Origin: an uncultured Smithella sp.
Lineage (GTDB): Bacteria; Desulfobacterota; Syntrophia; Syntrophales; Smithellaceae
Direction: 5' to 3'
Assembly: GCA_964469905.1 (NCBI GenBank)
Contig: CAYXZW010000006.1
Location: 23,107-87,106, forward strand
DNA: 64,000 nt
A program made the translations under genes and the position numbers. This document shows positions 3,183-49,526 of this stretch, one piece after another; the first letter of the stretch is position 1; each line of letters opens with the position of its first letter. Under the pieces are notes generated by a model. It was given only the letters and a program-made list of their open reading frames with translations, had not been told where the DNA came from and searched no databases.

Positions 3183-3192
3183 GGATCTATCC

Positions 3193-4125: not shown

Positions 4126-4157
4126 TTTTTTCTTACCGAGCAAAGGACATTAAGCGT

Positions 4158-5222
4158 ATGCAAAAGAAAACATTGTTGGTCACCGGCTCTTCCGGCCTGA
4201 TCGGTTCCGCCGTCGTCGAGAATCTTCATAAAGACTTTGACAGGGTCTATGGACTGGATAACAATATGAGGGCTGTCTTCTTCGGCCCGCAGGGCGATAC
4301 TCGTTGGAACCAAAAAAGAATGGAATCTTCCATTCCTAACTATAGCCATATCGAAGCGGATATACGGGATCGGAAGAAAATTTTGTCAATCATAGAGGAC
4401 ATTCGCCCTTCCCTGCTGGTTCATACCGCAGCGCAGCCAAGTCACGACCTGGCTGCACAAATGCCTTTTGACGATTTTGACACGAATGCCGTTGGAACTC
4501 TCAATCTTCTGGAGGCTGTGCGACATCATACACCCGATGCCGTCTTTGTTCATATGTCAACCAACAAAGTCTATGGTGATGCCCCCAACAGGATTAAACT
4601 ACGGGAAATGGAAAGCCGGTGGGATTACGATGATCCGCATTTTGCTGACGGCATTGATGAAAGTTTCACCATTGATCAATCCAAGCATTCGTTGTTCGGC
4701 GCTTCCAAGGTGGCGGCAGATATTGTTGTTCAGGAATACGGCCGTTATTTTGGCTTACGATCCTGCTGCTTGCGGGGAGGTTGCTTAACGGGGCCTTCAC
4801 ACTCGGGTGTTGAACTGCACGGGTTCCTGAGCTATCTGATAAAATGCAATCTTGAAAAGATTAAATACAGCGTTTATGGTTACAAGGGGAAACAGGTACG
4901 CGACAACATCCACTCGTATGACGTTGCCCAATTTATCCGACAATTTTATGCAAATCCGCGTATTGCTGAAGTTTACAATATCGGCGGCGGCAGGGAAAAC
5001 TCTATTTCCATAATGGAAGCATTCAGCCGCATAGAGCGCCTCTCTGGCATTCCAATGATTCATGAATATCAGGAAAAGAACCGGGAAGGCGATCATATCT
5101 GCTATATCAGCAATTTGTCCAAGATGAAGATGCATTATCCAGGTTGGACAATTACTAAGAGCCTGGATGATACCTTTTGTGAAATTGCCGATGCATGGAA
5201 GCAGCGGATCGAAAACGCTTAG
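4158..5222 (+). CDS. SDR epimerase/dehydratase, CDP-paratose 2-epimerase-like
   Basis: [27 protein letters not shown] (YxxxK region), GKQVRDNIH and YNIGGG follow the tyvelose/paratose epimerase layout as I recall it. Confidence 0.6.
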
Positions 5223-5244
5223 CGCCAGACCTGGAGTGGACGAT

Positions 5245-6186: not shown

Positions 6187-6191
6187 AAAGG

Positions 6192-9445: not shown

Positions 9446-9581
9446 AAATCTAAGTACTTGCTCTGGTGATCATCAATCTGACGAAATTCGAATATGTTCG
9501 CTACGGCTACTTTACAAGTAATAAAGCAATATTCCGCAATTTTTACAACAAGACTTATGGTTAATATTAGGAGAGTAAACC

Positions 9582-12500
9582 ATGCCGACAAATTCATATT
9601 TATCGACACACAGCCAATACCGGGAAGATCTGGTTATCGACACACTTTTTAAGTACAAATCCAATGGTTTTTATGTTGATATCGGCGCCAATGATCCAGA
9701 CGTCTTGAGCAACACCAAATTGTTTTATAATCGGGGATGGAACGGCATCAACATAGAACCGGAGCCGAATCTTCATGCAAAGCTCTGCTGCCATAGAGGA
9801 AGAGATATTAACCTGAGAGTTGGCGTTGGCCCCGAGCCGGGAATAATGACATTTTATCGGATGTCTGCCGACACGCTTTCATCATTTAATAAGCAAGCCG
9901 CTCTTCAAGCAGGCAAGCTTTACGGCGGAACTTTGATTGGAGAGGAACCTACACCAGTTGCAAAGCTGGCTGATATCCTGGCGGATAACCTCCGCGGAAG
10001 TTCGATTGATTTTATGTCCGTTGATGCGGAGGGATATGACTTGGCGGTCTTAAAAAGCAACGATTGGTCCCGCTTCCGCCCATCCGTCATTATTGTCGAA
10101 ATCAATGTGGGTGGGAATGATATTATCGCATTTTTACAAAAACAGGATTACATTTTAATATTTGACAATTATACCAACGGTATTTTTGTTGCCAAGGAAT
10201 TCTTCAATACGATTGATGATAATATTAGAGAGGACCTGCGCAAACTGGAAAATAGTCAAGGTCTGCGAACAGTACTCCCGCGGACTGGGGAAAAAAACGA
10301 ACTTTATATTAATCATATATACGGCCATCAGTCCCCGAGCATTATCAAAGCATTCAAACGTGGAAACGTCACCATCCTCTGCACACATCTTCCGATCGAA
10401 GGATGCGATCATTACGTCTATACGAATTCCTTCAGCTACTGTGGCAAAATGCCTGGTTTGAACATTCTGCTCATGCTGGAGCCATCGGTCGTCCTTCCGG
10501 GCGAGTATAACGATCATGTCTGGCAGCATTTCGATCATGTCTTTGGATTATTCGACGTGCTTATGGATCGCAGCAACAAATTTCATAAAATATTTTTTCC
10601 GCGAACCGATATACCGGGCGCAAATCCGGTCACTGATAACCAAAACAGCCGCGAAAATCTCTATCCGCTATCAGGACGCAAGCATGCCATATGCATGATC
10701 GGCAGTAACAGAAGTTCCCATGTACCCTATGAACTATACTCCAAACGTGTTGAAGCTGCCCGCTGGTTCGCGGAGCATTCCAAAATACCTTTTGACGTTT
10801 ATGGGCCACCATTTGCTCTGCCCAATTACCGGGGACCTTGTCCGGTTTCTCAAAAGTTGGCAAAAATTAAAGAATATCGATTTAATCTTTGTTTTGAAAA
10901 TACCAATGATCCGATATTGGCCGCGGGCTACGTCACCGAAAAAATTCTCGACTGCATGGAATCGCGGACCATTCCAATTTACCTGGGTGCCCCCAACATC
11001 GAGCAATACGTTCCTGAGGACTGTTTCATTGATTTGCGCAAATTCGCCGACTATGCTGATCTGGAAAAATATCTGCGCAAAATGAGTAATCAGGATTATC
11101 ATCGTTATATAAACGCAATCGACAAATGGGTTACAAGCGGCAATCTTATGAAATTTGCTGAAGCGCCGTTATATAACGATCTGGCGAAACTGTGTGCGGA
11201 GTCCTCGAGACTTAATATCGAGAATCTGTTTGCATCAGATCACGTATGGGAAGTATGCAAAGCCGAACCGCCGACAGCCCGCCAATGGCAGTTTGTTCAG
11301 AAGCCCGCGTTGTGGACTTGGAAACATCTGTCAAAAGCCGAGGCTCCGATTATCGAAAACGGAAAACTGATCAGCCGGCAGCATTTAACTGTTTGCCGGA
11401 AATCTGATAAAGTCAATACATCCGAGGGAAAGTGTTTCCTGATCGGAAAGAAACCATCTATCAAGGTATTAGCTGCCGGCACCAAATTCTTTTCTGGCAA
11501 TGCACGGCAGGGGTATGACTATGGATGGTGGAATCATTTTGATGCGCTTAAACGCTTTGAAAATATAGAAATGCATTTTTTTGATTATGCTACGGAGGCA
11601 CAGCAGCGAGGGATTGCGGGAATGTCCGAATGCCTACAGGAAGTCATCTGTAAAGAAAAACCCGACATACTCTTTTATTGTCCTCTCAACAGTCCGGTTG
11701 GTATTCTGCCTGATAGCCTAAAAAGCATAACCGGTTTAACGGATACTCAAACTGTCATTTGGATGAATAATGATCATCAACTTTTAAACGAGGACGCAGA
11801 AAGCTGGGCACACTGCTCTGATTACATCATTACACTTTCACCTGAATCTGCAGGGTATTTTGCAGCGGCAGGTTTCGGCTCCAAAGTCATTAAAAGCCAA
11901 TGGGGTTTCAATCCTTATACATATAACACATCAAACGCAAGACACCGGGAAATAAGCTTTTGCGGCGCTGCCAAAGGCATCCGTTCAGAGATCCTGGAAA
12001 AAATAAAACAGAGCGGTTTGTCTGTTGATGTTTTCGGATCAGGTTGGCACGAGGACTCTTTCATTCCCTTTTACGATATGGTAAATATTTTTTGTCAATC
12101 CAGGATTAACCTGCACCTCAGTGATACGCCTGATCTAATGAACCATCAGATCAGAAGAAGAACTTTCGAAGTGCCGGGTTGCCATGGATTTTTACTCACT
12201 CATCCTGCAGACGGCTTGGAAGAGTATTATAAACCCGGCAAGGAAATCGTCGTTGCTTCCTCATCGGAGGAACTGATTGAGAAAGCAAAGTATTATCTTG
12301 CCCATGAACGGGAACGGGAAATAATCGCGCAAAGCGGATATGAGCGAACACTTGCCGAGCATACATGGTCCCGGCGCTTCATTGATATTTTCAAACATAT
12401 CGGTTTCACAGCTATCCTCAGATCCATCTCCGGAATGGTCGGCGCCCCGTATTTTGTTGAGTCTTCCAAAACTTCTCTCTTAACCACAACGGAAAATGAA

Positions 12501-15500
12501 GCGGTAACGTCCATAGACTCTCAAAACGAAGTCATTGAAACAACCATCAATGTCATGGCATATAACCAACTGGAATACACCAAAATATGCGTGGAAAGCA
12601 TTCTACATTATACTAAAGGCCCCTTCGAGTTACTGCTGACTGACAATGGCTCAACAGACGGCACCAGTGAATATTTTAATGCTGTAAAGAACTTTCATCC
12701 GCGCACCCGGATCATTCGAAACTTCCACAACCGCATTGCGGAAACGGCGGTAAATCATTCCACTTGTGCGGCACGTGGAAAATATTATGTGTTTGTCAGC
12801 AACGATACAATGGTACACGAAGGTTGGCTGGAAAACCTTATCCGCCACATGGAATCTGCTCCGGATATCGGCTGGGTGGGACCGCGTTCCAATAGTATTA
12901 GCGGGCCTCAGTTTGAGTCAGCTGTGTACGATTCCACAGAGACATTCCAGGCTTTTGCCGCCGAACGGGCCAATCTGCATCGGGGCGAAAATTTCCCCGT
13001 TGATCGCTTAGCAGGAATGCTCGTCATTTCCAAGAAGCAGTTTTTTGAACGAATCGGAGGAGCGGATCCTTACCTGCCGGCAAATGGCAGAGATGGAGGT
13101 TATGGTTTCAGCGATGATGATATATCACTACGGTTTATTATAGCCGGCTATAAGTTACTCGTTGCCAATGATGTTTACATCCAGCACTTCGGCAGTGTAA
13201 GTGCAAAACATGATCGTCCTGATCTCTTTGGCTCCCCCCAAAATCTCAATAAAGAAAAATATCTACGTAAAATCAGGGATAATAACCGCATCACTATGGC
13301 AACAGACGGCAATATGATTATCAAACCTTACAAGCTCGATGATATCATCCCGGTGGAAGAACGAATGGTCATCAGAACCCCCCGTATATGTTTTGTTGAA
13401 ACAGAAGACAATGTTACAATAGCACCTGACACCGAAAGCCTTTATGTCGACGTCGCCCAAATACATAATGGACAAATTTTCGGGGACAGGGGTAAAACGA
13501 TCCAATCCCTAATCCTGCAACTCCTGGAAGACAACTCCTATGATTTTCTTGTTCTGATCAATTCGCGCCTTGCCCCCTCTCCGGAAATCGTCTCTGCACT
13601 GACGGAATCGGCCCTGTGTCACCCGGATGTGGGAATTATGGTTCCAACGGGCAACTATGCACCGGCAACACATCAACCCGCAGAAACAAAGAAAGGTATC
13701 GAGCTGATTGATTATGCTGATTTGTCTACATGTACTATAAACCTCAAAATTACCAGGCCTTTTCGACCAGGTCTCGCCAATTGTGAAAATGACAATGAAT
13801 TATTATGGTTTTTGCAGAGACGTGTACGGGGTGAAGGTTATTTTATCGCGAAAGCAAATAATGTTGAAATCAATTACAGCAGGCCGATACTTGATCATCC
13901 ATGCGATGCTCAAGTTCTTCCGGAACAACTGGTAAAAGAAAGAAAATATACGGAAGCTGCAGCCATTTACAGAAATGATCTTGAAAAAGATCCTACCTTT
14001 GCCGAAGCCCACTATCAGCTTGCCCTTATTGCCAGAGAACAGCAGCGGACAGAAGAAGCCATCTTGCACGCCGAGCAGGCACTTGGGGCAGATCCGCATC
14101 ACATAGAGTCTTTGATTTTCCTGTCGGGCTTATTTATGGCGCAAAACGACTGGAAGCGTGCGAAATCGTTCATCGGCCAGGCTAACTTCAAGCAGCCGGG
14201 TAACCCGGAAGTAAAGAAAATAGTCGAGCAATATGAGCAGAAAATGGGGGAAAAAGCTGTTCTTCCAAAACAAAAAGAAGGTGCAACAATACCTTGCCTG
14301 ACAAACAGTGAATTTATTAAAGGCAGGACATCCATTATTGTTACGGCATCTTCTAAACACATACGTGAATGCATAACTGCCATTAAAAAACATACACCGG
14401 AACCTTATGAACTGATAGTGATTGACAACTTCATAACTGAGGAATTGAAAAAGAAGCTGCAGAAAACTGTTAAAGAAATCAGCAGTCCCTGCAAAATTCT
14501 GGAGCACTCTCCCAAAGCCCCCTTATTGCAGTCCGTCAACCTTTGCATTAACGAATCAACCGGCGAATTTATCGTTCTGATTATGGATGATACTATAGTT
14601 TCAGCAGGCTGGCTCACCGGAATGCTGACATGTCTTAAATTCGCACCTGAAGCGGGTATCATCGGCCCCATGACTAACACTGGAAGCGGTCTCCAGCGGG
14701 TTGCCGACGACTTGTGTCAATCCGTTAATTATGTCGATAAATGCGCGGCTACATTTAAAGAGCGATTTCATCACCGCCGGGTGCCATACCGGAATATTGC
14801 CGGACCATGCCTGTTATTCAAGAGAACACTCGTGGAAAAAATCGGATTACTGGATGAACGATTCGCAGCCGGAGAGTTTGAAGTTGAAGATTATTGCTGG
14901 AGAGCAGAATTGGACGGCTGCATAAATTATATAGCCGGTGATGTTTTTGTCTATAATTACGGAAAAAAGGGATTGCCGGGTGACAGAACAATCATTGATA
15001 CAAAATGGACATTCAGTATGGACAGCCTCGAAGGCAGGAAACTGGCTGTTCTGAAATCCCGGGAACTGGCTGCTGTCATGTATCAAAAAGGCTTCATGGA
15101 TCAGGCAGTCGAAGCACTGATCAACTGCATCAAACTGATCCCCGATGCCAAAGAAATATATTATGACCTGACCCTTATGTTTATTGAATCCAGAAGATTT
15201 TCCGAGGCCCGGGAAGTTGTCGGAACCATGCCGGAAGCGGTCAGAAATGATGTAAAGGGTTTAGGATATGCGGGTTACGCCATGGAAGGTTTAGGTCAGG
15301 ATGATGAAGCGGCTGCCTGTGCGGACAGAATATTGTCTCAGAATGAAAAATACCCGGCAGCTCTGAATCTGAAGGGTGTTTTAGCGTATAAAAAAGACGA
15401 TAGAGAAAAGGCTGCGTACTATTTCCAGAAGGCCATTGACGCTGATCCGGGGTATGGCGAAGCCCATATCAACCTTGGTGTTCTGTACCGGGGATTAAAG

Positions 15501-17096
15501 CAGAAGGAGGCAGCTCTGGTTCATTTGAAAAAAGGTTTTATTCTGTCTCCATTCATTCCGGACGTGAATTCGATTTATTATTCCGTAATGTCTTCTGCAG
15601 GCATGTTCAGCGAGGCGGAAGACGACTTTTGTGAAGCTTTAAAATTATATCCCTGCAATAAAAATCTTGTTTTTTTATGTATTGATATCTTTCTTCAGCA
15701 GTCTAAGTATGATGCGGCTTTGCATAAGATAGAAGATACCCTTGATGTATTTGGTTTGGATGAAGGTTTACTGAACGCAGCCATTGATATCCGGGAAAAA
15801 ACAGGTCCCCTGCAGATCGACAAAGCAAACAAGAAAGGCACACTGTCTCTTTGCATGATTGTCAAAAATGAAGAAAAGTATCTTATTCCCTGCTTAAAAA
15901 GCGTTCGTGATATTGTGGATGAAATCATCATTGTGGACACGGGATCAACCGACAAAACAGTTGCCATTGCCCGTATCTTTGGGGCCAAATTGTTTGAATT
16001 TTCGTGGACCGGCGATTTCTCGGCAGCACGCAATCATTCATTAGAGCAAGCGACAGGCCAATGGATTTTAGTTCTTGATGGCGACGAGGTTATTTCACCG
16101 CGAGACCATAAAAAGATCAAAGAAATTATTTCCCGGAAATCACCATTGCATTGCGCTTATTCCATTGCCACACGAAATTATTTATCAACAGTCGGCGGTA
16201 TGGGATGGGTGAAAAACAGCGGAGAATATCCTGAAGAAGCGGGCATCGGACGGGTAGAAAGCGTAAAAGTGCGGCTTTTCACCAGAAATAAAAATATCTT
16301 TTTTAGTAAACCGGTTCACGAAATATTGGAATATTCTCTCAAAAAAGAAAAGGTTAGCATTCTTCCCTGCGAGATCATCGTTCACCATTACGGCAAATTA
16401 GACATTCAGAGAGACCAGAAAAAAGGTGAAGATTACTATCTGCTGGGGAAAATCAAATATGAAACCGATCCGACCCATATGAAATATATAATAGAATTGG
16501 CCAAACAGGCGCACCTGCTCGGCAAAAATGAAGAAGCCGCCGAATTGTTTGAAAAACTCCTCTCGCTCATAGCAGCCAATCCGTATTCACCGAGCTTTGA
16601 GGAAATTTACCAGATGACTCATGGCAAACCGATGTTGGAAATATATACAACACTTGCAGCAGTCTATCTGGGGCTGCACCGCTTTGATGATGCCCTGAAC
16701 GCAGCCCGCAAAATAGCGGCCGACAGCAACAGGCGCGAAGCAAATATTTTTGTTTACGCGCATTGCGAGATCATCGCGGGATCGCTTACCAATGCATTTC
16801 GTGAACTGGAAGAATCTCTCCGGATATCGCCGGACTACTTGCCCAATTTTATTATGATGGCCGTTGTTTTCTGCCTGGAAGGCAATAAGGAAAAAACCGG
16901 GGAATATATCCTGTTGCTTCAGCAAAAACGGGTTGTGATAACTACGATTATTAACACAATTGCCCAGGAATTGATTGCTTACGGGAAAAAAGATGGTGCC
17001 CTGCTCATCATCAATGCGATGATTGAATACAAGATATACGATCAGGAGACAATAAGGTTGGCCGGTGTTGTACAAAATGACATGGGCAGTGCGTAA
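9582..17096 (+). CDS. 2504-aa multidomain methyltransferase / multi-glycosyltransferase with TPR blocks
   Basis: Single uninterrupted ORF with an AGGAG SD upstream of ATG 9582. Domain motifs are listed in the sub-features below. Confidence 0.85.
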   Translation: MPTNSYLSTHSQYREDLVIDTLFKYKSNGFYVDIGANDPDVLSNTKLFYNRGWNGINIEPEPNLHAKLCCHRGRDINLRVGVGPEPGIMTFYRMSADTLSSFNKQAALQAGKLYGGTLIGEEPTPVAKLADILADNLRGSSIDFMSVDAEGYDLAVLKSNDWSRFRPSVIIVEINVGGNDIIAFLQKQDYILIFDNYTNGIFVAKEFFNTIDDNIREDLRKLENSQGLRTVLPRTGEKNELYINHIYGHQSPSIIKAFKRGNVTILCTHLPIEGCDHYVYTNSFSYCGKMPGLNILLMLEPSVVLPGEYNDHVWQHFDHVFGLFDVLMDRSNKFHKIFFPRTDIPGANPVTDNQNSRENLYPLSGRKHAICMIGSNRSSHVPYELYSKRVEAARWFAEHSKIPFDVYGPPFALPNYRGPCPVSQKLAKIKEYRFNLCFENTNDPILAAGYVTEKILDCMESRTIPIYLGAPNIEQYVPEDCFIDLRKFADYADLEKYLRKMSNQDYHRYINAIDKWVTSGNLMKFAEAPLYNDLAKLCAESSRLNIENLFASDHVWEVCKAEPPTARQWQFVQKPALWTWKHLSKAEAPIIENGKLISRQHLTVCRKSDKVNTSEGKCFLIGKKPSIKVLAAGTKFFSGNARQGYDYGWWNHFDALKRFENIEMHFFDYATEAQQRGIAGMSECLQEVICKEKPDILFYCPLNSPVGILPDSLKSITGLTDTQTVIWMNNDHQLLNEDAESWAHCSDYIITLSPESAGYFAAAGFGSKVIKSQWGFNPYTYNTSNARHREISFCGAAKGIRSEILEKIKQSGLSVDVFGSGWHEDSFIPFYDMVNIFCQSRINLHLSDTPDLMNHQIRRRTFEVPGCHGFLLTHPADGLEEYYKPGKEIVVASSSEELIEKAKYYLAHEREREIIAQSGYERTLAEHTWSRRFIDIFKHIGFTAILRSISGMVGAPYFVESSKTSLLTTTENEAVTSIDSQNEVIETTINVMAYNQLEYTKICVESILHYTKGPFELLLTDNGSTDGTSEYFNAVKNFHPRTRIIRNFHNRIAETAVNHSTCAARGKYYVFVSNDTMVHEGWLENLIRHMESAPDIGWVGPRSNSISGPQFESAVYDSTETFQAFAAERANLHRGENFPVDRLAGMLVISKKQFFERIGGADPYLPANGRDGGYGFSDDDISLRFIIAGYKLLVANDVYIQHFGSVSAKHDRPDLFGSPQNLNKEKYLRKIRDNNRITMATDGNMIIKPYKLDDIIPVEERMVIRTPRICFVETEDNVTIAPDTESLYVDVAQIHNGQIFGDRGKTIQSLILQLLEDNSYDFLVLINSRLAPSPEIVSALTESALCHPDVGIMVPTGNYAPATHQPAETKKGIELIDYADLSTCTINLKITRPFRPGLANCENDNELLWFLQRRVRGEGYFIAKANNVEINYSRPILDHPCDAQVLPEQLVKERKYTEAAAIYRNDLEKDPTFAEAHYQLALIAREQQRTEEAILHAEQALGADPHHIESLIFLSGLFMAQNDWKRAKSFIGQANFKQPGNPEVKKIVEQYEQKMGEKAVLPKQKEGATIPCLTNSEFIKGRTSIIVTASSKHIRECITAIKKHTPEPYELIVIDNFITEELKKKLQKTVKEISSPCKILEHSPKAPLLQSVNLCINESTGEFIVLIMDDTIVSAGWLTGMLTCLKFAPEAGIIGPMTNTGSGLQRVADDLCQSVNYVDKCAATFKERFHHRRVPYRNIAGPCLLFKRTLVEKIGLLDERFAAGEFEVEDYCWRAELDGCINYIAGDVFVYNYGKKGLPGDRTIIDTKWTFSMDSLEGRKLAVLKSRELAAVMYQKGFMDQAVEALINCIKLIPDAKEIYYDLTLMFIESRRFSEAREVVGTMPEAVRNDVKGLGYAGYAMEGLGQDDEAAACADRILSQNEKYPAALNLKGVLAYKKDDREKAAYYFQKAIDADPGYGEAHINLGVLYRGLKQKEAALVHLKKGFILSPFIPDVNSIYYSVMSSAGMFSEAEDDFCEALKLYPCNKNLVFLCIDIFLQQSKYDAALHKIEDTLDVFGLDEGLLNAAIDIREKTGPLQIDKANKKGTLSLCMIVKNEEKYLIPCLKSVRDIVDEIIIVDTGSTDKTVAIARIFGAKLFEFSWTGDFSAARNHSLEQATGQWILVLDGDEVISPRDHKKIKEIISRKSPLHCAYSIATRNYLSTVGGMGWVKNSGEYPEEAGIGRVESVKVRLFTRNKNIFFSKPVHEILEYSLKKEKVSILPCEIIVHHYGKLDIQRDQKKGEDYYLLGKIKYETDPTHMKYIIELAKQAHLLGKNEEAAELFEKLLSLIAANPYSPSFEEIYQMTHGKPMLEIYTTLAAVYLGLHRFDDALNAARKIAADSNRREANIFVYAHCEIIAGSLTNAFRELEESLRISPDYLPNFIMMAVVFCLEGNKEKTGEYILLLQQKRVVITTIINTIAQELIAYGKKDGALLIINAMIEYKIYDQETIRLAGVVQNDMGSA
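9609..10196 (+). other. domain: FkbM-type methyltransferase (aa ~10-205 of giant ORF)
   Basis: FYVDIGANDPD, INIEPEP, IDFMSVDAEGYD. Confidence 0.7.
10449..11141 (+). other. domain: GT10-like (alpha-1,3-fucosyltransferase family) core (aa ~290-520)
   Basis: KEYRFNLCFENTNDPILAAGYVTEKILDCMESRTIPIYLG matches the GT10 FxLxFENS...Y.TEK motif. Confidence 0.6.
11439..12401 (+). other. domain: CgeB/DUF3880-type GT-B glycosyltransferase (aa ~620-940)
   Basis: ISFCGAA...RINLHLS...RRRTFEVPGCHGFLLT...KPGKEIVV...AQSGYERTLAEHTW. Confidence 0.55.
12534..13211 (+). other. domain: GT2 glycosyltransferase A (aa ~985-1210)
   Basis: VMAYNQLEYT...ELLLTDNGSTDGT...VFVSNDTMVHEGWL. Confidence 0.7.
13374..13886 (+). 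other. domain: degenerate GT2-like segment (aa ~1265-1435)
   Basis: ICFVETEDN...DFLVLINSRLAPSPEIV has a GT2-like layout but no clear DxD motif. Confidence 0.3.
13914..14216 (+). other. TPR block 1 (aa ~1445-1545)
   Basis: YTEAAAIYRNDLEKDPTFAEAHYQLALIA...AILHAEQALGADPHH. Confidence 0.6.
14328..14966 (+). other. domain: GT2 glycosyltransferase B (aa ~1583-1795)
   Basis: TSIIVTASS...YELIVIDN...FIVLIMDDTIVSAGWL. Confidence 0.65.
15039..15806 (+). other. TPR block 2 (aa ~1820-2075)
   Basis: Repeated A/Y/L helical pairs, e.g. AAYYFQKAIDADPGYGEAHINLGVLY. Confidence 0.65.
15837..16406 (+). other. domain: GT2 glycosyltransferase C (aa ~2086-2275)
   Basis: LSLCMIVKNEEKYL...EIIIVDTGSTDKT...WILVLDGDEV. 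Confidence 0.75.
16434..17021 (+). other. TPR block 3 (aa ~2285-2480)
   Basis: Helical repeat sequence after GT2-C, e.g. EAAELFEKLLSL, ALNAARKIAA. Confidence 0.5.
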
Positions 17097-17267: not shown

Positions 17268-17717
17268 TCAGACACTAATACTTGCTGCAAAGTGGTTCTT
17301 ATGTGGTCTTTGTAAAGCCTGCCCCACCACCTGTTCGTTATTGCTGGGGTTTTGGTTGAGACCAGCGGCGATATTCAGATTAATATTAATAAGGATATTG
17401 AGCTTCTCCGGGGCTGGATGTGCCATGACCTCAAAGATTCTTTTATCGATAAAGATACTTAAGCTGAGAATATCCTCTTTGATCTGTTTGGGAAGTGGAT
17501 TATCGTCTCTGATCAACTCACTTTGCAGTATAGTCCAGATATCCTGATTATTCCGCAGCGCCTCACTGAGCTGCACATCACGGTCGGCAGCATTCCAGTT
17601 ATTCTGGCATTCTTTAAGCTTGAATGCAGCCTGCATCAGCGCACCTGCTTCGATCTCCCGTCCGGACAGATATAATTTCCTGTTTGACTTATACGCTTCA
17701 AGTTGATTTGCGGACAC
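17268..17717 (-). CDS. flaF: flagellar biosynthesis regulator FlaF
   Basis: Colinear with Caulobacter FlaF as recalled: AY...REIE...L..AL..N..IW...NPLP...I.SL..F..., ending in LININLNIAAGL. Overlaps flbT by 20 nt. Confidence 0.8.
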   Translation of the reverse strand: MSANQLEAYKSNRKLYLSGREIEAGALMQAAFKLKECQNNWNAADRDVQLSEALRNNQDIWTILQSELIRDDNPLPKQIKEDILSLSIFIDKRIFEVMAHPAPEKLNILININLNIAAGLNQNPSNNEQVVGQALQRPHKNHFAASISV

Positions 17718-18096
17718 GATCTAATACCTCCCGTTCATATTCGATAAGTTTCTTGGCCGATTTCAGTGCCTGATAATACTCGCTTTTGAGTATATATTCA
17801 CTGATCTTGTCGATGTGAATGAGCGTACTGGGTACTGCAGATACTAGATCTTTCACCAGTGCCCAGTAGTTGTTATGATATTCGACAATATTACCGGCAT
17901 CAATGTACATAAGCTGAATTACAAAATAAATCCTGCTGCAATAGGTTGTTGCCTCCTCATCGCGCATAATGTCTTTTTCGCGCAGCACTGCAACATTGTT
18001 TTCCACAATAAATTCGGAACGGTTCTTCCCGTTCTGGATTACCGCACCGCCAATGATCAGTTTTTCCTGCGGTCTAAGCACAATTTTCAGGGCCAT
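17698..18096 (-). CDS. flbT: flagellin translation repressor FlbT
   Basis: MALKIVLRPQEKLIIGGAVIQNG...VLREKDIM...YYQALKSAKKLIEYE closely follows the FlbT family. Confidence 0.85.
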   Translation of the reverse strand: MALKIVLRPQEKLIIGGAVIQNGKNRSEFIVENNVAVLREKDIMRDEEATTYCSRIYFVIQLMYIDAGNIVEYHNNYWALVKDLVSAVPSTLIHIDKISEYILKSEYYQALKSAKKLIEYEREVLDRVRKST

Positions 18097-18519: not shown

Positions 18520-19875
18520 TTACTGGAACAATCTCAGAACCGACTGGGCTGCCTGTGCCGAGAGACTCAGAGCAGTGGTGGCCAGTGACTGACGGGTCTG
18601 CAACATCAGCATGTTGGCTCCTTCCTCATTGGTATCGGCCAGTGTCAGTTTATCCGAACCTGCATTCAGTGTGTTAATCATGTTCGTCGAAAATTGCTGT
18701 CGAACAGTAACAATACTCAGGTTGTTGGATAGTTTGGACGACTCCGTCCGTAAAGCGGTTGCCGCAGTATCCAGCTTGGTTACATCAGCATCAATATCGC
18801 CGCCGATGACCCAAGTTGCGGCAGTAATGCCCCGCCCTGTTGTTGATGCATCAAAGCCCGCAACGGTCAGATTAGTGCCTTCGAATTTAACTATCAGATT
18901 ATCGTTATTCAGAAGGTTCTTGCCTTTGTACCCGGAATCTAACGCCAACCTATCCATCTGATAACGCAAGGAGTTAAACTGCGATTCCAGTGATACTTTT
19001 TCACGGGACGCAACGGTTATAGTTACCGTTGTGCCGGCAAAGGCTGTACTACCAATATTGGCAGTTGTTATACTTGCTTGCAGCAGAGTAGCAATTGCCG
19101 TGTTTCCACCGGAATTAACAGTGGTGGTGCTATACCCGGTACTGACGCCTGCCGTATAAGTAAATACTGTCGAGTCCAGGCCCACTGTGAATTGCCTTAC
19201 TTCCGCAGCACCAACGGTCAAACCTGTGCCCACATTCGTCGACACATTGGTGATAGCTATGGTAACAGCATCGAATGCGATTGAATTACTATCACTCCGC
19301 GCAATCGTTATTGTGGAGGCGCCTGTTGCAGTATAGGTTCCTTCGGTCAAAGCAGCAATCAATGCTTGAAGACCAGCTATATCTTGAAATTTCCCACCCC
19401 CAATACTATAAGTGCCGCCGGATGAAAAAGCAAAAACATGTGTATTCCCACTTGCTGTAATTGTTACTTTATCACCGGCAGTCAGAGTAGCGACAGTGCC
19501 TATCGAAAGACTCAGTGTCTGATAAGTGGAAATACTTCCTACATTTTCCGTTTCAGTCGTGCTGCTTGTAGCCAGGGCTGATTGCGCGATACCTTTGGCC
19601 TGCTCAATCATTGTACTGAGTGCTGTAATGCCCTTGTCGGCGGCGGTAATAGTCTGAACGGCCTGACCCATCGCATCCTTCAAACCGTCGATTGTTGCTG
19701 CGCGCGCGTTCAATGACGCGGCTGCAAAATACGATACCGGGTTGTCAATTGCTGTGTTGACTTTTTTGCCTGTAGAAAGGCGGTTTTGTGTGCGGTCTAA
19801 AAGTTCTACTGTGCTTTGCAGAGATAAAAGGTTGTTTCTCATTCCTGAGGTTAAGCTGATATCATTAATAGCCAT
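18520..19875 (-). CDS. fliC: flagellin
   Basis: Conserved N-terminus (LTSGMRNNLLSLQ...RLSTGKKVNTAIDNPVSY) and C-terminus (LQTRQSLATTALSLSAQAAQSVLRLFQ). Thr/Ser/Gly/Ala-rich central domain. AAAGGAG SD. Confidence 0.95.
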   Translation of the reverse strand: MAINDISLTSGMRNNLLSLQSTVELLDRTQNRLSTGKKVNTAIDNPVSYFAAASLNARAATIDGLKDAMGQAVQTITAADKGITALSTMIEQAKGIAQSALATSSTTETENVGSISTYQTLSLSIGTVATLTAGDKVTITASGNTHVFAFSSGGTYSIGGGKFQDIAGLQALIAALTEGTYTATGASTITIARSDSNSIAFDAVTIAITNVSTNVGTGLTVGAAEVRQFTVGLDSTVFTYTAGVSTGYSTTTVNSGGNTAIATLLQASITTANIGSTAFAGTTVTITVASREKVSLESQFNSLRYQMDRLALDSGYKGKNLLNNDNLIVKFEGTNLTVAGFDASTTGRGITAATWVIGGDIDADVTKLDTAATALRTESSKLSNNLSIVTVRQQFSTNMINTLNAGSDKLTLADTNEEGANMLMLQTRQSLATTALSLSAQAAQSVLRLFQ

Positions 19876-22220: not shown

Positions 22221-25019
22221 TTACAAGTAATCCATAATCGTCATTTTCCCAATGTCTGCCGCCATTCTGTAGGACGCCTGCAGCGCTGTCTGTTTCATTT
22301 GATAGGCAACAATTAACGCCGCTAAATCTGCCTTTTCGAGTTCAGTATCCAGATTTGTAACTTGTGCATTTAATGCTGTATTGCTCTCTTTTGCAACTGT
22401 TAAAGAATTTATTTTAGTACCTACACTCGCCAGATGGGTAACAACTTGCGTTTGCGCAACCTGCAATTCGTCAATTCGTCCACTAATCACATTGCCATCA
22501 TTATCCTCAACAGCTGTCTTTATTGCAGTCAAAGTGGCCAGGAGATCAACTGTCCCGGGACCGCGAACAGTAACGGAGCTCAATGACGGCTGTGTTGCCG
22601 GCGGACCTACCGTACTTCCGGTAATAGAAAATGATGCTGTGTTATTCGCACTCCATGTCTCGGTTCCGGACAAGGACAATTTTATGATATCCGTTCCCGT
22701 ACCATCCACATCAATATTTACTGCGGCATCGCTTACTGAAGCAATAACCATATTAGGATATTGAGTGTGGTTATTCAGAGTCCAACTACCGGCAGTGGCA
22801 CCGCGCGTCAGCACAATATTGTCATCTTTGGTAAGAGTGGTTCCGGTACCGGTGGTTAAGGAAGCGGTGGCAGTAGGGCCATTGGCTGCCGTAAATGCGG
22901 AAGAACCGGTAATGTTATATATAAAATTATTATTTTTACCTATCTGCAAGGTCAGGTTATCACCATCGCCCCGATAACTGCCCGCTGGATAAGCATTCAC
23001 CATAAACAAATCATTGGCGGCAAGATTAACGGTATTAGGCGTAAAGGTTGTTGTTATGCCTTCGCCCAGTGTAATCGTTTTGGTCGTAGTTGCGGTAACT
23101 GCCCCAAAATCAAGAGAACCGCCGGCAGGATTAGTGGTAGTAAGGGTCATTGCGATCTGGCTTTCGCCAGTCGTGTCATCCGTGACCGTTATTTTTCCGG
23201 TGGTGTCGATAGATGCAGTCACAGTGCCGCCGAAGGTTGTTTCAATTTGTGTTAGCAAATCCTGTACCGTACCTGTTGCCGCATTCGCTATTGTAAAAGT
23301 TGCCGGTCCGACGGCGGTGAGGCCGTCGCGCTGAAGCCCGGAAATGGCAACAGTGGTGCCATTTTGGACATTGGCTCCGGTTATTTCGTTCCAGGCGGTC
23401 GCTGACGTAATAGGTGCTCCGCCGGCTGTGTTAGCTACTGCCCCCTTGAGCTCTCGAGGCGGAAGAGTCTGCACCGCCCCCCAGGTTTTACCACCGTCCG
23501 AAGATATTTTATAAGTTGAGACAGCCAATGTGCCGCCGGTAATAATTTTTACGGCATACGTTTTGTTTTCTGTTCCGGTATAAGTGCCGCCGGATGCTAC
23601 TGTGCCGTTAAAAGCATTGGCCGTTGCCGCAGATGCAGTGCCAATTCCCGTAGCAATTGCCGTCACCGTAAATTTATCATCAGCCGCAAGATTGTTTGTG
23701 CCGGCAGTAAAGGTCAACTTTATCCCGTCGCCTAACGTTGTTTCTGTAGAAAGGCCTGTTTTTGTTGATCCCCAGGTCACGCCACCGTCTGAAGATATTT
23801 TATATGTTGCATCAGCCAATGTGCCGCCGGAAATGATTTTTAAAGCATAAGTTTTGTTTATCGTTCCGGTATAAGTACCACCGGCTAAAACCGTGCCGTC
23901 AAAAGTATTAACCGGTGTTGCGGTTGCACTGCCGGTAATGGCGGCACCGGCGTTCACCGTAAATGAATCACCGACGGCAAAAGTACCAGCTGTAAAAGTC
24001 ATGGTTGCACCGTTGGCCACATCACTACTGTCACGTAAAGTAATGGTTCCCCCTGGATCGATTGTATTGGTTGTGCCCCAACTTGCGCCGTTGTCGGTAG
24101 ATATATGATATGTTGCTACACCCAATGCTCCGCCAGCGACAATTCTCACAAGATAAGATTTGTCTGCTGTCCCGGTATAAGTACCGCCAGAAGTAGCGGT
24201 ACCGGCGTAGGTATTACCAGGTGCCGCTGTTGCGGTTCCAATTGTGGAAGCCGTTCCATTCACGGTATATTTATCGCCTGCAGCAAGAGTATGAGCGCCA
24301 GCGGCGGGAGTAAAGATCATGGTTATCCCGTCACCTAAAGTCATCGGCGCGGAAAGGCCTGTTTGCGTCGCACCCCAGGTCGCACCGCCGTCGGAAGAAA
24401 TCTTATATGTTGCATCTGACAGATCGAGTGCCGTTCCGCCATCAATAATTTTCACCGCATAATTTTTATTTACAATTCCCGTATAAGTGCCACCGGATGT
24501 AACCGTGCCGTTAAAAGAGTTCACCGGTGCTGCGGTTGCAGTGCCTATGCTGCTCAACTGATTTGTGGAGAAAGGCGCAACAGCCGTTTTTGATCCGCTA
24601 AACAGATAACTGTCGCCACACTTGGCATTCAGCAAGGACATGGCTTGATCAATCAAGCTGGAAAGGAATGTCACGGAAGAGTCTCTGGTATCGGACGTAT
24701 CCGAATTCTGTCCAGCCAGTAACTCGGTAGTAGCAACATTAATTGCTTTGGAGATAATATCTTTAATGCCGGTAAGATTTGTATTAGTTAAAGACAACCA
24801 GGTATTGGCGTCAGTAATGTTTTGTTGATGCTGTGAAATTGATGATATGATCGAACGATAATTTAATGCCTTGCCGGTGCCAACCGGATCATCCGACGGC
24901 CTGTTGATATTTTTCTGGGTGGTGAGCTTCTCCATCAACTCAGCGGATTGGCTCTGAACAGTATATAAACTGCTGGTCATCGCATTAAATTTCATATTTT
25001 CTGTAACTCTGTTAATCAT
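22221..25019 (-). CDS. flgL: hook-filament junction protein FlgL (HAP3), unusually large at 932 aa
   Basis: N-terminus MINRVTENMKF...NINRPSDDPVG, C-terminal helical region ending IGKMTIMDYL, and position after flgK. Confidence 0.85.
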   Translation of the reverse strand: MINRVTENMKFNAMTSSLYTVQSQSAELMEKLTTQKNINRPSDDPVGTGKALNYRSIISSISQHQQNITDANTWLSLTNTNLTGIKDIISKAINVATTELLAGQNSDTSDTRDSSVTFLSSLIDQAMSLLNAKCGDSYLFSGSKTAVAPFSTNQLSSIGTATAAPVNSFNGTVTSGGTYTGIVNKNYAVKIIDGGTALDLSDATYKISSDGGATWGATQTGLSAPMTLGDGITMIFTPAAGAHTLAAGDKYTVNGTASTIGTATAAPGNTYAGTATSGGTYTGTADKSYLVRIVAGGALGVATYHISTDNGASWGTTNTIDPGGTITLRDSSDVANGATMTFTAGTFAVGDSFTVNAGAAITGSATATPVNTFDGTVLAGGTYTGTINKTYALKIISGGTLADATYKISSDGGVTWGSTKTGLSTETTLGDGIKLTFTAGTNNLAADDKFTVTAIATGIGTASAATANAFNGTVASGGTYTGTENKTYAVKIITGGTLAVSTYKISSDGGKTWGAVQTLPPRELKGAVANTAGGAPITSATAWNEITGANVQNGTTVAISGLQRDGLTAVGPATFTIANAATGTVQDLLTQIETTFGGTVTASIDTTGKITVTDDTTGESQIAMTLTTTNPAGGSLDFGAVTATTTKTITLGEGITTTFTPNTVNLAANDLFMVNAYPAGSYRGDGDNLTLQIGKNNNFIYNITGSSAFTAANGPTATASLTTGTGTTLTKDDNIVLTRGATAGSWTLNNHTQYPNMVIASVSDAAVNIDVDGTGTDIIKLSLSGTETWSANNTASFSITGSTVGPPATQPSLSSVTVRGPGTVDLLATLTAIKTAVEDNDGNVISGRIDELQVAQTQVVTHLASVGTKINSLTVAKESNTALNAQVTNLDTELEKADLAALIVAYQMKQTALQASYRMAADIGKMTIMDYL
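22617..22817 (-). other. shared axial-protein insertion module, FlgL copy
   Basis: IVLTRGATAGSWTLNNHTQYPNMVIASVSDAAVNIDVDGTGTDIIKLSLSGTETWSANNTASFSITG. Confidence 0.7.
22983..24550 (-). repeat. four tandem ~95-105-aa protein repeats in FlgL, each with an Asp-box; the fourth is split by an insertion carrying a Flagellin_IN-like motif
   Basis: Repeat heads: IGTATAAPVNSFNGTVTSGGTYTG, IGTATAAPGNTYAGTATSGGTYTG, GSATATPVNTFDGTVLAGGTYTG, IGTASAATANAFNGTVASGGTYTG. Asp-boxes: SSDGGATWG, STDNGASWG, SSDGGVTWG, SSDGGKTWG. The insertion contains TGTVQDLLTQIETTFGGTVTASIDTTGKITV. Confidence 0.8.
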
Positions 25020-25038: not shown

Positions 25039-26745
25039 CTATCTTCCCAAGGTAATCAAAACATCCATCATATCCGATACTACTTTTGTTAGTCTGCCGG
25101 CGGCATTGTAAGCCATTTGATATTTAATCAAATTAAGCATCTCTTCATCCAGCGAAACTCCGGAAAGCGCTTCTCTTTGGTCGCTACGCTGATTAGCTAC
25201 TGCTTGTTCACGAGCCAGCTCCGTGGCCGATCTGAAGACATCCTGACCTACTCCAGCTATAAATGCATTGAAATAACCTTCTATATTCGTCGTGCTGTCT
25301 CTTTTGCTGAGAGAAAAAGCAAGCGTATCACCACTGGCCCAGGAGCCGGACAAACTTAATGTTATATCGGCGGTCCCATTCCCGTTCAGATCGAGAGTGA
25401 GGCTGTTATCGTCGGCAGATAGAACTTGAATTGCTGTGAATCCGCCATTATTTGCTATGGTCCAGTCCCCGCGAGCGGAAGTCGCACCACGTGTCAGCTC
25501 TATGGCTGAGGTTGTATTTTTATAGGCCTGCCCAATATTATTAATAAGACCTGCGGCGGATCCAGTGCCGGTAGTTATGGATATTTGCCCCAAAGAGGCA
25601 TACATTTTATCTTCGCTGATCACAGCCATGGCCGTGGCATTATCACCATCGGAGTTGACCGTGGAAGAAGCAGCAATTTTCCTGACATCGGCAATAATCG
25701 CCGCACTGACCTGGATATTCTTTGCTTCCGTCATATTGATTGTTGGATTAGTAGTTGCAGTAAAAAAAGCACCGCCGATATTGCCGTCCTGATCATAACC
25801 GGCCATATGTTGAGTGTTTACTTTATTTATAATACTGGCGGTTGTCTGATTTAACTTATCAATATAAGAGTCCAGAACAACATCTCTAACATTCAATAAT
25901 CCACCCAGTTCGCCACCTGTAATATCATTATTCAGCGAACTGTTAAGATCATCAGTAAAAACAATATCGTTTAAATTGGCGTTGGCAGAATTGCTCTGTA
26001 CTGTTAATTGCCATTTATTAGTTCCTTCAACAAGAGTCTTGCCGCTTGCCGGCAGATAAATATATAATGAACCGTCACTGCGCTCCATGTAACTAATATC
26101 AATTATTGAACTAATTTTGCTAAGCAGCGTCGTGCGATTGTCTCTGAGGGACGATGCCTGGGCGCCAGCACCTTCTATACGGGCAATTTCCCCATTGAGA
26201 ACGGACATTTCATTAAAATACCCGTTCAGTTTATCGACATCATCGGCTATCGTTTGATCAATGCTGCTCTGCACACTATATAGCTCTGCCGATCTGGAAT
26301 TAAGAATATCGGTCAGATTTTTAGCTGCCGTTACCAGGACATCTCTCTCTGTTTTACCTGACGGGTTGACGGAAAGATTTCCCCAGGCGCTCCAGAACTT
26401 ACTCAGAGCATCATTGATACCGTTTCCCGCACTTTCATTCACGATACCTTCAATTTGAGTCAACAAGCTCTTCCGGGCCGTGGCGCTGCCCACGGCTGAA
26501 TCCTGAGCAACTATTTGAGAACCAAGAAATTTATCATAAACTCTCTGAATATCGGCAATTTTCACCCCAATCTGTTCCTGATTTGATGAAGCCTCTCTTG
26601 TTCCCACAGATTCAAATAGCGGACGAAGACGTGTATAACCTGGGGTGCTGATATTGGAAATATTCGATCCGGTAACATTAATCGCCGTCAAATTACTGAT
26701 AATAGCATCTTTCGCTGTATATAAAATTCTGCCAATGTCAGACAT
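25039..26745 (-). CDS. flgK: hook-associated protein FlgK (HAP1)
   Basis: N-terminus NVTGSNISNISTPGYTR. C-terminus LDEEMLNLIKYQMAYNAAGRL. Confidence 0.9.
   Translation of the reverse strand: MSDIGRILYTAKDAIISNLTAINVTGSNISNISTPGYTRLRPLFESVGTREASSNQEQIGVKIADIQRVYDKFLGSQIVAQDSAVGSATARKSLLTQIEGIVNESAGNGINDALSKFWSAWGNLSVNPSGKTERDVLVTAAKNLTDILNSRSAELYSVQSSIDQTIADDVDKLNGYFNEMSVLNGEIARIEGAGAQASSLRDNRTTLLSKISSIIDISYMERSDGSLYIYLPASGKTLVEGTNKWQLTVQSNSANANLNDIVFTDDLNSSLNNDITGGELGGLLNVRDVVLDSYIDKLNQTTASIINKVNTQHMAGYDQDGNIGGAFFTATTNPTINMTEAKNIQVSAAIIADVRKIAASSTVNSDGDNATAMAVISEDKMYASLGQISITTGTGSAAGLINNIGQAYKNTTSAIELTRGATSARGDWTIANNGGFTAIQVLSADDNSLTLDLNGNGTADITLSLSGSWASGDTLAFSLSKRDSTTNIEGYFNAFIAGVGQDVFRSATELAREQAVANQRSDQREALSGVSLDEEMLNLIKYQMAYNAAGRLTKVVSDMMDVLITLGR
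25306..25503 (-). other. shared axial-protein insertion module, FlgK copy
   Basis: IELTRGATSARGDWTIANNGGFTAIQVLSADDNSLTLDLNGNGTADITLSLSGSWASGDTLAFSLS. Confidence 0.7.
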
Positions 26746-47696: not shown

Positions 47697-49526
47697 TTAT
47701 CTCTTAATATTCATTAATTCCTGCATAATTTGATCCTGCGTCGTAACAACTCGAGCGTTGGCCTGGTAGGCCTTCTGGGCCGTAATCATTTTAATAAATT
47801 CCACGGCGATATCGGTATTGGACATCTCCAGGGTATTGGGTGTCAGCACTCCCATGCCGGATTCTCCGGGATAATTCTGCACTGTGGCACCGGATAGAAC
47901 CGTTTCACCAAAAAGGTTGCTGCCCATCTTTTTGAGGCCCCACGGATTGGGAAACGCGGCCAGCATTATTTGCGCCAGATCGGCGGTCTGCCCGTTGGTA
48001 AAGAAACCGTTGATTCTGCCGTTCCCAGAAATGGAAAGTGATTTTAAATTACCGGACGAATATCCGTCGGCAGTCAACGCCCGGATGACAGACGCTGTGG
48101 AATACTGGGTAATATTTAAAGCTCCGTCGCCCAGCAAATTCCAGTTTAGATCACCACTTGTACCAATTGTCGCCCCGCCATCCAGCGGTATACCAGTGTA
48201 GTTAACCGTGATATCATTGAGAGCCGAAGCCGTATGAGTCAGCGTGAATAGGGCCGTATCGCCTGTTACCCACGTATTGGTAAGCGTCATGGTAATATCT
48301 GTAGTTCCGGAACCGTCAAGGCTGAGAGTAATCGGGCCTGCGGTGCCTGCAGAGGTGACTACGGCATTGGAATATCCGCCGGTACCTTCTACTGTCCAGG
48401 CGGTGGCGCCTTGTGTTAGTTTTAAAGTGCCGGTAGTGCTCTGGTAAATCATCCCCGGTCGATCCAGGGCCAACGTGGCCGTCTTTGCGGCCCCTACATT
48501 AGTTAATGTAAATGTAGCCGTATCTGTGTTTGCCCATACACCGGCGGGAGTCAGATGTGCATCTGTCGTACCATCTCCATTGAGGTCGATATTGACTGTA
48601 GTTGCAGTGGGTGTACCAACAATAGCCGCACTGGTATATCCACCGTTATTGGTAATTGTCCAATTCGCTGCTGTTGCTCCTCTTGTCAAAATCATTGTAC
48701 CGGTCAGACTTACCATTGCGGGATGGTCCAATGTCGCCGTTGCCGTACCGGCACCGCTTGCAGTAACTGCGCCCACAGTGTTATGCTCAGACGTAACTGC
48801 GCTCGCGGTTCCTGTATATAACTCGGTACAAGTACCATCGGTATTAAAAATTAAACCATTATGGCTGATGGAAGTTGCCGCAGTCGAATCCAGAGTGCTA
48901 TTCACAGCCCAGTAGCCGGCTCCGGAGCGTTCCGTTCTAGTAAACGTAGTATTCAGCGTGCGCTTGGAGCCCAGGGAATCATATAATGTCTGCGTGGTGC
49001 TGTACTGGCCGCCTCTGACAGTTACGGAATTCAAATTGGCACCAATGGAAAAGGTAGTGCTTACCGTCGGTTGCGATTTACTGGCCGTTAAATTAATGTC
49101 ACCCAGCGCTCCGACCGGAACACCACCTTCAACAGCTCTCCCCTGTACCTTATAACCGTTGGTGTCCACCATTAAGCCATCAGCATCCAGATGAAAAGCC
49201 CCGGCTCGCGTATAGAAGGTAGCGCCTTCCGCATCGTTCACCATAAAGAAACCGTCGCCATCAATGGCGACATCCGTGGCGTTGCCAGTCGTTTCAAAGG
49301 CACCGGCGCCAAACTGGGTTTGCACTGCCGAAACGGCCACACCGCGTCCCACCTGCAGCGTTCCCGATGCGCCTCCGGAAAGGCTCGAACTCAAAACGTC
49401 CGAAAAATAAGTTGTACCGGCTTTGAAACCAAGTGTATTAACATTAGCCAGATTATTGGCGATGACATCCAGTGATTTAGAAGATGCATTCAACCCCGAT
49501 ATTCCTGCCCATAGTGCGCTGCCCAT
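47697..49526 (-). CDS. flgE: hook protein FlgE (609 aa, enlarged)
   Basis: N-terminus GISGLNASSKSLDVIANNLANVNTLGFK. C-terminus MITAQKAYQANARVVTT. Confidence 0.95.
   Translation of the reverse strand: MGSALWAGISGLNASSKSLDVIANNLANVNTLGFKAGTTYFSDVLSSSLSGGASGTLQVGRGVAVSAVQTQFGAGAFETTGNATDVAIDGDGFFMVNDAEGATFYTRAGAFHLDADGLMVDTNGYKVQGRAVEGGVPVGALGDINLTASKSQPTVSTTFSIGANLNSVTVRGGQYSTTQTLYDSLGSKRTLNTTFTRTERSGAGYWAVNSTLDSTAATSISHNGLIFNTDGTCTELYTGTASAVTSEHNTVGAVTASGAGTATATLDHPAMVSLTGTMILTRGATAANWTITNNGGYTSAAIVGTPTATTVNIDLNGDGTTDAHLTPAGVWANTDTATFTLTNVGAAKTATLALDRPGMIYQSTTGTLKLTQGATAWTVEGTGGYSNAVVTSAGTAGPITLSLDGSGTTDITMTLTNTWVTGDTALFTLTHTASALNDITVNYTGIPLDGGATIGTSGDLNWNLLGDGALNITQYSTASVIRALTADGYSSGNLKSLSISGNGRINGFFTNGQTADLAQIMLAAFPNPWGLKKMGSNLFGETVLSGATVQNYPGESGMGVLTPNTLEMSNTDIAVEFIKMITAQKAYQANARVVTTQDQIMQELMNIKR
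48237..48422 (-). other. shared axial-protein insertion module, FlgE copy 2
   Basis: KLTQGATAWTVEGTGGYSNAVVTSAGTAGPITLSLDGSGTTDITMTLTNTWVTGDTALFTLT. Confidence 0.7.
48501..48692 (-). other. shared axial-protein insertion module, FlgE copy 1
   Basis: ILTRGATAANWTITNNGGYTSAAIVGTPTATTVNIDLNGDGTTDAHLTPAGVWANTDTATFTLT. Confidence 0.7.

Follow-up and report, generated by a model that had tools for sequence, protein, structure and literature searches.

One domain of about 90 residues in the hook protein and the junction proteins of a Smithella-like flagellum

The window analysed here is a stretch of 64,000 nucleotides from an uncultured Smithella sp. (NCBI GenBank assembly GCA_964469905.1, contig CAYXZW010000006.1, positions 23,107 to 87,106 of the forward strand) and contains flagellar genes of a bacterium of the Syntrophales that resembles Smithella. 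The hook protein FlgE and the two hook-associated proteins FlgK and FlgL encoded in it carry, in total, four copies of one all-beta accessory domain of about 90 residues, hereafter called the module: two are arranged in tandem in FlgE, and FlgK and FlgL have one each. The module is a new domain family, without a neighbour in Pfam, in NCBIfam, among PDB sequences or in Foldseek searches, and, as far as can be judged from sequence, it has been copied as a cassette among these three genes, a clear case of domain shuffling.

Four copies of one domain in FlgE, FlgK and FlgL

The four segments, first noted in an earlier note on this DNA, are located within three open reading frames (ORFs) on the minus strand, and translation of the four ranges on that strand is free of stop codons and identical to the peptides that had been quoted. 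In FlgE, the Pfam families PF00460 (Flg_bb_rod), PF22692 (D1), PF07559 (FlgE_D2) and PF06429 (Flg_bbr_C) were all found above their cutoffs, with the FlgE_D2 match split over residues 166-489. This protein scored 278 bits against NCBIfam TIGR03506 (cutoff 70), was matched by PDB FlgE chains with E values down to 9e-45, and has its closest FlgE relatives in Smithella and Syntrophaceae metagenome-assembled genomes (MAGs), at 73-88% identity. FlgK and FlgL reached 283 and 183 bits against the equivalogs TIGR02492 (cutoff 171) and TIGR02550 (cutoff 127), respectively. Coordinates of genes, module copies and loops are collected in Table 1.

All six pairs of copies, labelled E1 and E2 (FlgE), K (FlgK) and L (FlgL), gave Smith-Waterman scores with z values of 9.4-19.7 relative to 1000 composition-preserving shuffles, none of which matched the real score, although the shuffled module sequences themselves show an unusually high mean local score (about 37-45) that reflects their biased composition. 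BLASTP with composition-based statistics was significant as well, with E values, calculated for a nominal effective database size of 1e8, ranging from 5e-14 (E1/E2) to 1e-3 (E2/L) at 39-47% identity. The claim that the same module occurs twice in the hook protein and once each in FlgK and FlgL is thus borne out, and the similarity persists after correction for Thr/Gly/Ala-rich composition. A profile hidden Markov model (HMM) of the four copies, run against the six-frame translation of the window, found those four copies only; FlgB, FlgC, FlgD, FlgF, FlgG and the flagellin-like protein of the window are therefore without the module. The size of the unit had to be revised: a unit of about 65 residues had been proposed, but two further N-terminal strands belong to it, so that the homologous unit comprises about 90 residues, and the two FlgE copies are offset by exactly 90 residues (256-345 and 346-435).

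A search for an already described domain was negative. Pfam and NCBIfam showed no match to the module up to E <= 10, over 64 copies of the family; profile searches of all PDB sequences gave a best E value of only 0.3, and a Foldseek search of the module model against PDB and BFVD returned nothing at E <= 1e-3. The model in question was produced with AlphaFold2 for E1 from a 64-row alignment, with rows from the window and from database proteins, and predicts with confidence a closed beta domain of 90 residues and seven strands (predicted local distance difference test, pLDDT, 96.1; predicted template modelling score, pTM, 0.85). The DLNGDGTTD loop is placed by the model in the hairpin between predicted strands 5 and 6 (residues 56-59 and 68-73). 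The top query-normalised template modelling (TM) score in the PDB fold search was 0.52, for Burkholderia FlgK (4ut1), which is not significant (E 4.5, probability 0.15). Literature searches on FG-GAP in connection with FlgE and on domains shared or shuffled among FlgE, FlgK and FlgL yielded no description of the module.

Distribution, insertion and history of the module

An exhaustive hmmsearch of the module profile against 1.84 billion representative proteins yielded 110 hits, which were classified by means of the module-free parts of the window FlgE, FlgK and FlgL. Every classifiable full-length hit was a homologue or fragment of one of these three proteins; a small number of short fragments stayed unassigned. 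Full-length copies were found in many MAGs of Smithellaceae, Syntrophaceae and Syntrophales and in one Desulfobacula MAG. The remaining hits were weak, consisted of multiple matched stretches and covered profile positions 32-77 only. Six of the ten non-flagellar hits that were sampled are FG-GAP propeller proteins, the only non-flagellar proteins identified in that sample.

Two groups of related sequences lie at the margin of this distribution. Giant FlgE proteins (942-1124 residues; P0152, P0155 and P0156) from Desulfobacterales/Desulfobotulus contain four to six tandem degenerate half-units of about 48 residues, for example 'SLDMNGNGSADITYTFQT…GAINFDID', whose match to the module is confined to its C-terminal half, i.e., the calcium-type loop and two strands. 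Three loci on contigs binned as Syntrophomonas or Methanobacterium (L046, L056 and L058) contain flgK and flgL of the Smithella type, module included, with 64-80% identity to the window; these are most likely binning contamination from a syntrophic partner rather than real archaeal or Firmicute flagellar genes.

Module-less orthologues of FlgE, FlgK and FlgL align to the window proteins with clean indels of about 100 residues. In FlgE the insertion point is a D2 beta-hairpin turn that connects the 'FN.DG' strand with the strand after it and corresponds to about residues 238-243 of Salmonella FlgE. In FlgK the 'GDNatA' helix precedes the module and the C-terminal D1 helix follows it (clean indel relative to the 468-residue FlgK of locus L057), and in FlgL directly before the C-terminal D1 helix (clean indel relative to the 405-residue FlgL of the same locus). 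Together with the distribution within one lineage, these cassette-like indels uphold the earlier proposal of domain shuffling within the axial proteins.

Copy number varies in FlgE. Among the 120 closest FlgE clusters, 80 have one module (typical length about 510 residues), 26 have two (about 610), 12 have three (about 715) and two have none (about 404). The presence of the module in FlgK and FlgL is coupled much more tightly: over 88 loci with both genes, 18 have it in both proteins, 70 in neither, and discordant pairs were not found (0). FlgK and FlgL thus gain or lose the module together, and FlgE is just loosely coupled to both. Twelve other genomes had all three genes matched, and in nine of these the module is present in all three; in CAZMBE it is absent from FlgE, FlgK and FlgL alike.

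These data also bear on the explanation that the likeness simply follows from a composition rich in Thr, Gly and Ala, or that the module is an ordinary, widespread and vertically inherited domain of axial proteins. The segments are indeed biased in composition and their shuffles score unusually high. However, the scores exceed those of the shuffles by z values of 9-20 and BLASTP remains significant after correction, no Pfam, NCBIfam or PDB match exists for the module, full-length copies form just about 45 clusters (50% identity) among 1.84e9 proteins, FlgK and FlgL of 70 other loci are without it, and orthologues differ by clean cassette indels. Shuffles, BLASTP, exhaustive search, indels and module-less loci taken together refute this explanation, to which we assign practically no weight.

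The copies are old, since their nucleotide identity in the window is just 52-61%, with a longest exact shared word of 9 nucleotides. Within a host protein identity is 61% (K-K), 48% (L-L) and 41% (E-E), and between host proteins it is 31-37%, both within a genome and across genomes; because copies of one genome are no more alike than copies of different genomes, there has been no recent exchange. Recent duplication or gene conversion was considered and ruled out by the low nucleotide identity, the lack of long shared words and the lack of excess similarity within a genome.

By neighbour joining, the copies from FlgK group in a clade of their own, and so do those from FlgL. Within the FlgL clade fall the first copies of two three-copy FlgE proteins (CAIVQG_E1 and DFZJ_E1), a branching that suggests a secondary transfer from FlgL to FlgE. 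Window E1 and E2 belong to separate old FlgE subclades, E2 grouping with the single-copy type (FlgE of about 510 residues). The variation of FlgE copy number between 0 and 3 goes back to tandem duplication and to one apparent transfer from FlgL. As to the order of events, the tree, which carries no support values, is only indicative; it hints at FlgE as the first carrier, followed by FlgK and FlgL, and then at a return from FlgL to FlgE.

Relation to FG-GAP repeats and proposed role

The central loop of the module had been likened to the calcium-binding turns of FG-GAP and of dockerin-type repeats. The first likeness turned out to be wider than claimed, as it spans a whole repeat of about 44 residues. 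Alignments to FG-GAP proteins extend from W34 to W75 of the module and bring the E1 loop opposite the FG-GAP sequence DYDGDGKTD; features in common are a W, a G-[FY], a D-x-D-G-D-G-x-x-D loop and a closing G-x-W. An hhalign comparison of the module with an FG-GAP profile, built from the 22 repeats that had been retrieved by the module profile and cut at their own DxDGDG anchor, gave a probability of 90.9% and an E value of 1.1e-6 over 44 columns, with a score of 33.3 compared to 8.6 ± 2.0 (maximum 16.1) for 200 column-shuffled module alignments (z about 12). The dockerin likeness received no support: a dockerin family was found neither among the Pfam matches listed at E <= 10 for the window copies, nor among the 25 families listed for the 64 copies, nor among the sampled non-flagellar hits.

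The module is nevertheless no ordinary member of the FG-GAP families. None of the 64 copies is matched by the Pfam FG-GAP models (PF01839 and PF13517) at E <= 10, and carrier proteins have one FG-GAP-like unit per module and one to three modules, not a propeller array of about seven repeats; the module is therefore placed outside the Pfam FG-GAP families. FG-GAP/VCBS repeats occur as tandem seven-blade propellers with DxDxDGxxD calcium hairpins, whereas the module holds a single unit within a stand-alone seven-strand domain, often has Thr, Asn or Ser at loop position 5, and is hosted by flagellar axial proteins. It is best described as a single FG-GAP-like blade with two extra strands before it and one after it, folding independently.

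The loop of the core has the form D-x-[DN]-G-x-G-T-x-D and corresponds to the hairpin loop with which FG-GAP and integrin propeller blades bind calcium. Over 70 copies, W34 is invariant, and the loop has D/N at position 3 in 97% and D at position 9 in 94%. In the window the calcium-loop pattern is complete in E1 and K and weakened in E2 and L; FlgL copies elsewhere mostly have the loop DxDGDGTDD, unlike the window FlgL. Going by these motifs, calcium binding is plausible for the E1 and K loops and doubtful for those of E2 and the window FlgL.

Flagellin-like proteins have their exposed variable region just before the C-terminal D1 helix. In the canonical hook, D2 forms the outer layer (PMC5097172). 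Because D2 is outermost and the region preceding the C-terminal D1 helix is exposed, the modules should face outwards on the hook and on both junction rings, where they would form an extra outer layer on all three structures. Binding of calcium by the loop would rigidify each module, and modules of neighbouring subunits would add contacts that make hook and junction thicker and stronger, much like the D3/D4 domains of Campylobacter, to which they are unrelated. The strict coupling between FlgK and FlgL suggests a contact between the two junction rings, which may touch each other through their modules. A structural role of the modules is most likely, and the analogy with the best support is that to Campylobacter FlgE D3/D4. 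As an explanation of the whole, we favour a shuffled FG-GAP-like cassette that forms a calcium-stabilised outer layer on hook and junction, and consider it fairly probable.

Several observations weigh against this explanation or parts of it. The earlier note had spoken of a continuous decorated surface from hook to junction, and this holds for this genome and for nine of the 12 others, but it is not obligatory: in JACQWR FlgE alone carries the module, and in CAYULE FlgK and FlgL carry it but FlgE does not, so that these two genomes contradict a lattice that would have to be continuous from hook to junction. The variation between 0 and 3 copies of FlgE modules among close relatives means that the domain is dispensable for a working hook. 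As to calcium, Asp occupies loop position 1 in 59% of the 70 copies and Ser in 30%, position 5 is D/N in just 50% and Ala in 11%, the window FlgL loop is degenerate, and binding is read from the motif. The single-sequence AlphaFold2 model of full-length FlgE was unusable (pLDDT 40), and the placement of the modules in the polymer is one that we infer; the neighbour-joining tree was calculated without bootstrap; and the module does not sit at the insertion site of the Campylobacter D3/D4 domains (see below).

A more specific variant holds that neighbouring modules (FlgE with FlgE, the last FlgE with FlgK, and FlgK with FlgL) dock via their FG-GAP-like loops into a calcium-dependent outer sleeve running from the hook through both rings. 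We see only a small chance that this is correct. If it were, the stiffness of hook and junction would be set by module copy number and external calcium, and the cassette would be needed in successive axial proteins for the outer lattice to end cleanly.

Alternatively, the module may be a scaffold for the display of O-linked glycans, whose exposed, Thr/Ser-rich surface would serve the flagellar glycosylation machinery encoded nearby as a common acceptor on hook and junction proteins. The window contains sugar-nucleotide genes and a 2504-residue ORF with several glycosyltransferase domains, the latter next to FlbT and the flagellin-like gene (Table 1), Ser plus Thr make up 26-31% of the modules compared to 18-25% of the rest of each protein, and FlgE of Helicobacter pylori is O-pseudaminylated at three sites (bioRxiv 10.1101/2025.07.13.664564). 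However, the enrichment is not specific to the module, since the rest of FlgE D2 is equally rich in Ser and Thr (30%); the conserved positions are the core aromatics W34, Y42, W75 and F83 and the loop instead of particular Ser or Thr residues; and the window flagellin-like protein, the usual target of glycosylation, has no module. This alternative appears improbable to us.

The same low probability is given to the proposal that the module is a rapidly varying surface decoration without mechanical role, involved in masking or varying the surface of hook and junction against flagellotropic phages or grazers or in adhesion to syntrophic partners. FG-GAP and integrin-type domains often bind ligands, and the flagella of a syntroph reportedly contact methanogen partners. 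Closely related Smithella FlgE have 0-3 copies, whole cassettes are gained and lost, the FlgL 'mid' domain described below is apparently a second cassette that also moves between FlgL and FlgK, and E-E identity is just 41%. Against this stand the K-K identity of 61% and the well-conserved core, which are unlike diversifying selection; the small size of hook and junction and their position close to the cell, which make them a poor target for adhesion or phages compared to the filament, which is without the module; and the strict co-occurrence in FlgK and FlgL, which suggests a structural dependency.

Neighbouring features and comparison with known axial-protein domains

Table 1. Features of the window discussed in the text (positions of the window; aa, residues)
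Feature	Positions	Strand	Remarks
flgE, hook protein, 609 aa	47697-49526	minus	domain D2 holds a tandem pair of modules as an insertion
Module copy E1, FlgE aa 256-345	48492-48761	minus	HMM 117 bits; translation checked
E1 loop DLNGDGTTD	48561-48587	minus	agrees with the FG-GAP/integrin calcium-loop pattern D-x-[DN]-x-[DN]-G-x-x-D
Module copy E2, FlgE aa 346-435	48222-48491	minus	HMM 119 bits
E2 loop SLDGSGTTD	48297-48323	minus	weaker form, Ser at positions 1 and 5
flgK, hook-associated protein 1 (HAP1), 568 aa	25039-26745	minus	Pfam FlgK_D1, 188 bits
Module copy K, FlgK aa 393-485	25291-25569	minus	HMM 126 bits
K loop DLNGNGTAD	25366-25392	minus	fits the calcium-loop pattern
flgL, hook-associated protein 3 (HAP3), 932 aa	22221-25019	minus	Pfam Flagellin_N
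Module copy L, FlgL aa 713-806	22602-22883	minus	HMM 120 bits
L loop DVDGTGTDI	22686-22712	minus	degenerate: Asp at position 8, Ile at position 9
FlgL tandem repeats, aa 158-680	22980-24548	minus	four repeats of about 100 aa
FlgL 'mid' domain, aa 519-645	23085-23465	minus	splits the fourth FlgL repeat
Sugar-nucleotide biosynthesis genes	385-9445	plus	radical SAM/SPASM, four epimerase/dehydratases, FkbM methyltransferase, DegT aminotransferase, GT11 fusion
2504-aa ORF	9582-17096	plus	fused FkbM methyltransferase, GT10, GT1-like, three GT2 domains, tetratricopeptide (TPR) repeats
FlbT	17698-18096		adjoins the 2504-aa ORF
Flagellin-like gene	18520-19875		near FlbT and the 2504-aa ORF
TPR protein, 400 aa	20753-21955	plus	divergent, immediately downstream of flgL

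Apart from the module, FlgL of the window contains four tandem repeats, each with an Asp-box/BNR-like motif, Y(K/H)IS(S/T)D(G/N)GxxWG (at residues 205, 304, 406 and 503). Module-less FlgL with one such repeat was found in related MAGs and FlgL with two in another MAG, and this second outer domain of FlgL is therefore one that has also been amplified in tandem. The 'mid' domain (…TVQDLLTQIETTFGGTVTASIDTTGKITV…) has a homologue in one Smithella MAG (L052), where it interrupts the module region of FlgK, and further homologues occur on separate minus-strand ORFs of 279-369 residues near flgL in other Syntrophales (L063, L065, L068, L072 and L088). It gives the impression of a further cassette that travels between flagellar genes. 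The plus-strand region from 385 to 17096 is probably a flagellar glycosylation island. Finally, the C-terminal part (about 140 residues) of the TPR protein located next to flgL has no Pfam match.

That hook and junction proteins can carry outer domains specific to a lineage is not new; as far as the literature covered shows, such domains have been described as unrelated additions to single proteins. In Campylobacter and Helicobacter, FlgE carries the domains D3/D4 (PDB 5jxl), which, like the module, are accessory beta domains on a conserved D0-D1-D2 hook protein. Campylobacter D3/D4 contribute contacts both inside a protofilament and from one protofilament to another, a robust hook depends on them, and flagella are broken when they are deleted (PMC5097172); FlgK of this lineage has diverged to fit the outer domains of FlgE (PMC5691160). 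No sequence or fold similarity between D3/D4 and the module was found in the PDB profile search or with Foldseek at E <= 1e-3. Insertion of the FlgE modules at the D3/D4 site was considered and ruled out, based on the deletion boundaries and on the position of the 'YDSLG' strand: D3/D4 are located between Ala235 and Gln603, before this strand, whereas the module follows the 'FN.DG' strand of D2. In addition, sharing of D3/D4 with FlgK or FlgL is not reported in the literature covered, while the module is common to all three proteins. Caulobacter FlgE D3, Burkholderia FlgK D3 (4ut1) and the large Campylobacter FlgL are likewise lineage-specific enlargements of exposed parts (PMC5691160), and resemble the module in this respect, but no sequence similarity to it was found.

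A native origin in FlgK was also considered, in which the FlgK copy would be the D2-like domain of that protein (PF21158), later donated to FlgE and FlgL. Two things had led to this idea, a full-length alignment to Salmonella FlgK by phmmer and the TM-score of 0.52 to Burkholderia FlgK. It was rejected based on the lack of a profile match, the different position and the clean indel: PF21158 matches neither the window FlgK nor any of the 64 modules, hhalign aligns just 6 columns, and PF21158 corresponds to Salmonella FlgK residues 336-416, before the 'GDN..A' helix, whereas the module comes after that helix. The flagellin hook 'IN' motif (PF07196) is a short internal element that recurs in several flagellar proteins. 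It differs from the module in being a short motif and not a folded domain of 90 residues with a calcium-type loop, and it gave no Pfam match in FlgE, FlgK or FlgL of the window.

Compared to these systems, what is new is the domain family itself, its origin from a single FG-GAP-like unit and the presence of the same cassette in three successive axial proteins, together with a variable module copy number and the coupled inheritance in FlgK and FlgL. The organisms that carry the module are anaerobes that are uncultured or hard to grow. By appearance, the family amounts to one FG-GAP blade turned into a stand-alone fold, and it provides a case of possible metal-dependent mechanics in the flagellar universal joint. 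The module offers a clean natural example of a self-assembling machine that gains an outer layer by moving a cassette between its own parts.

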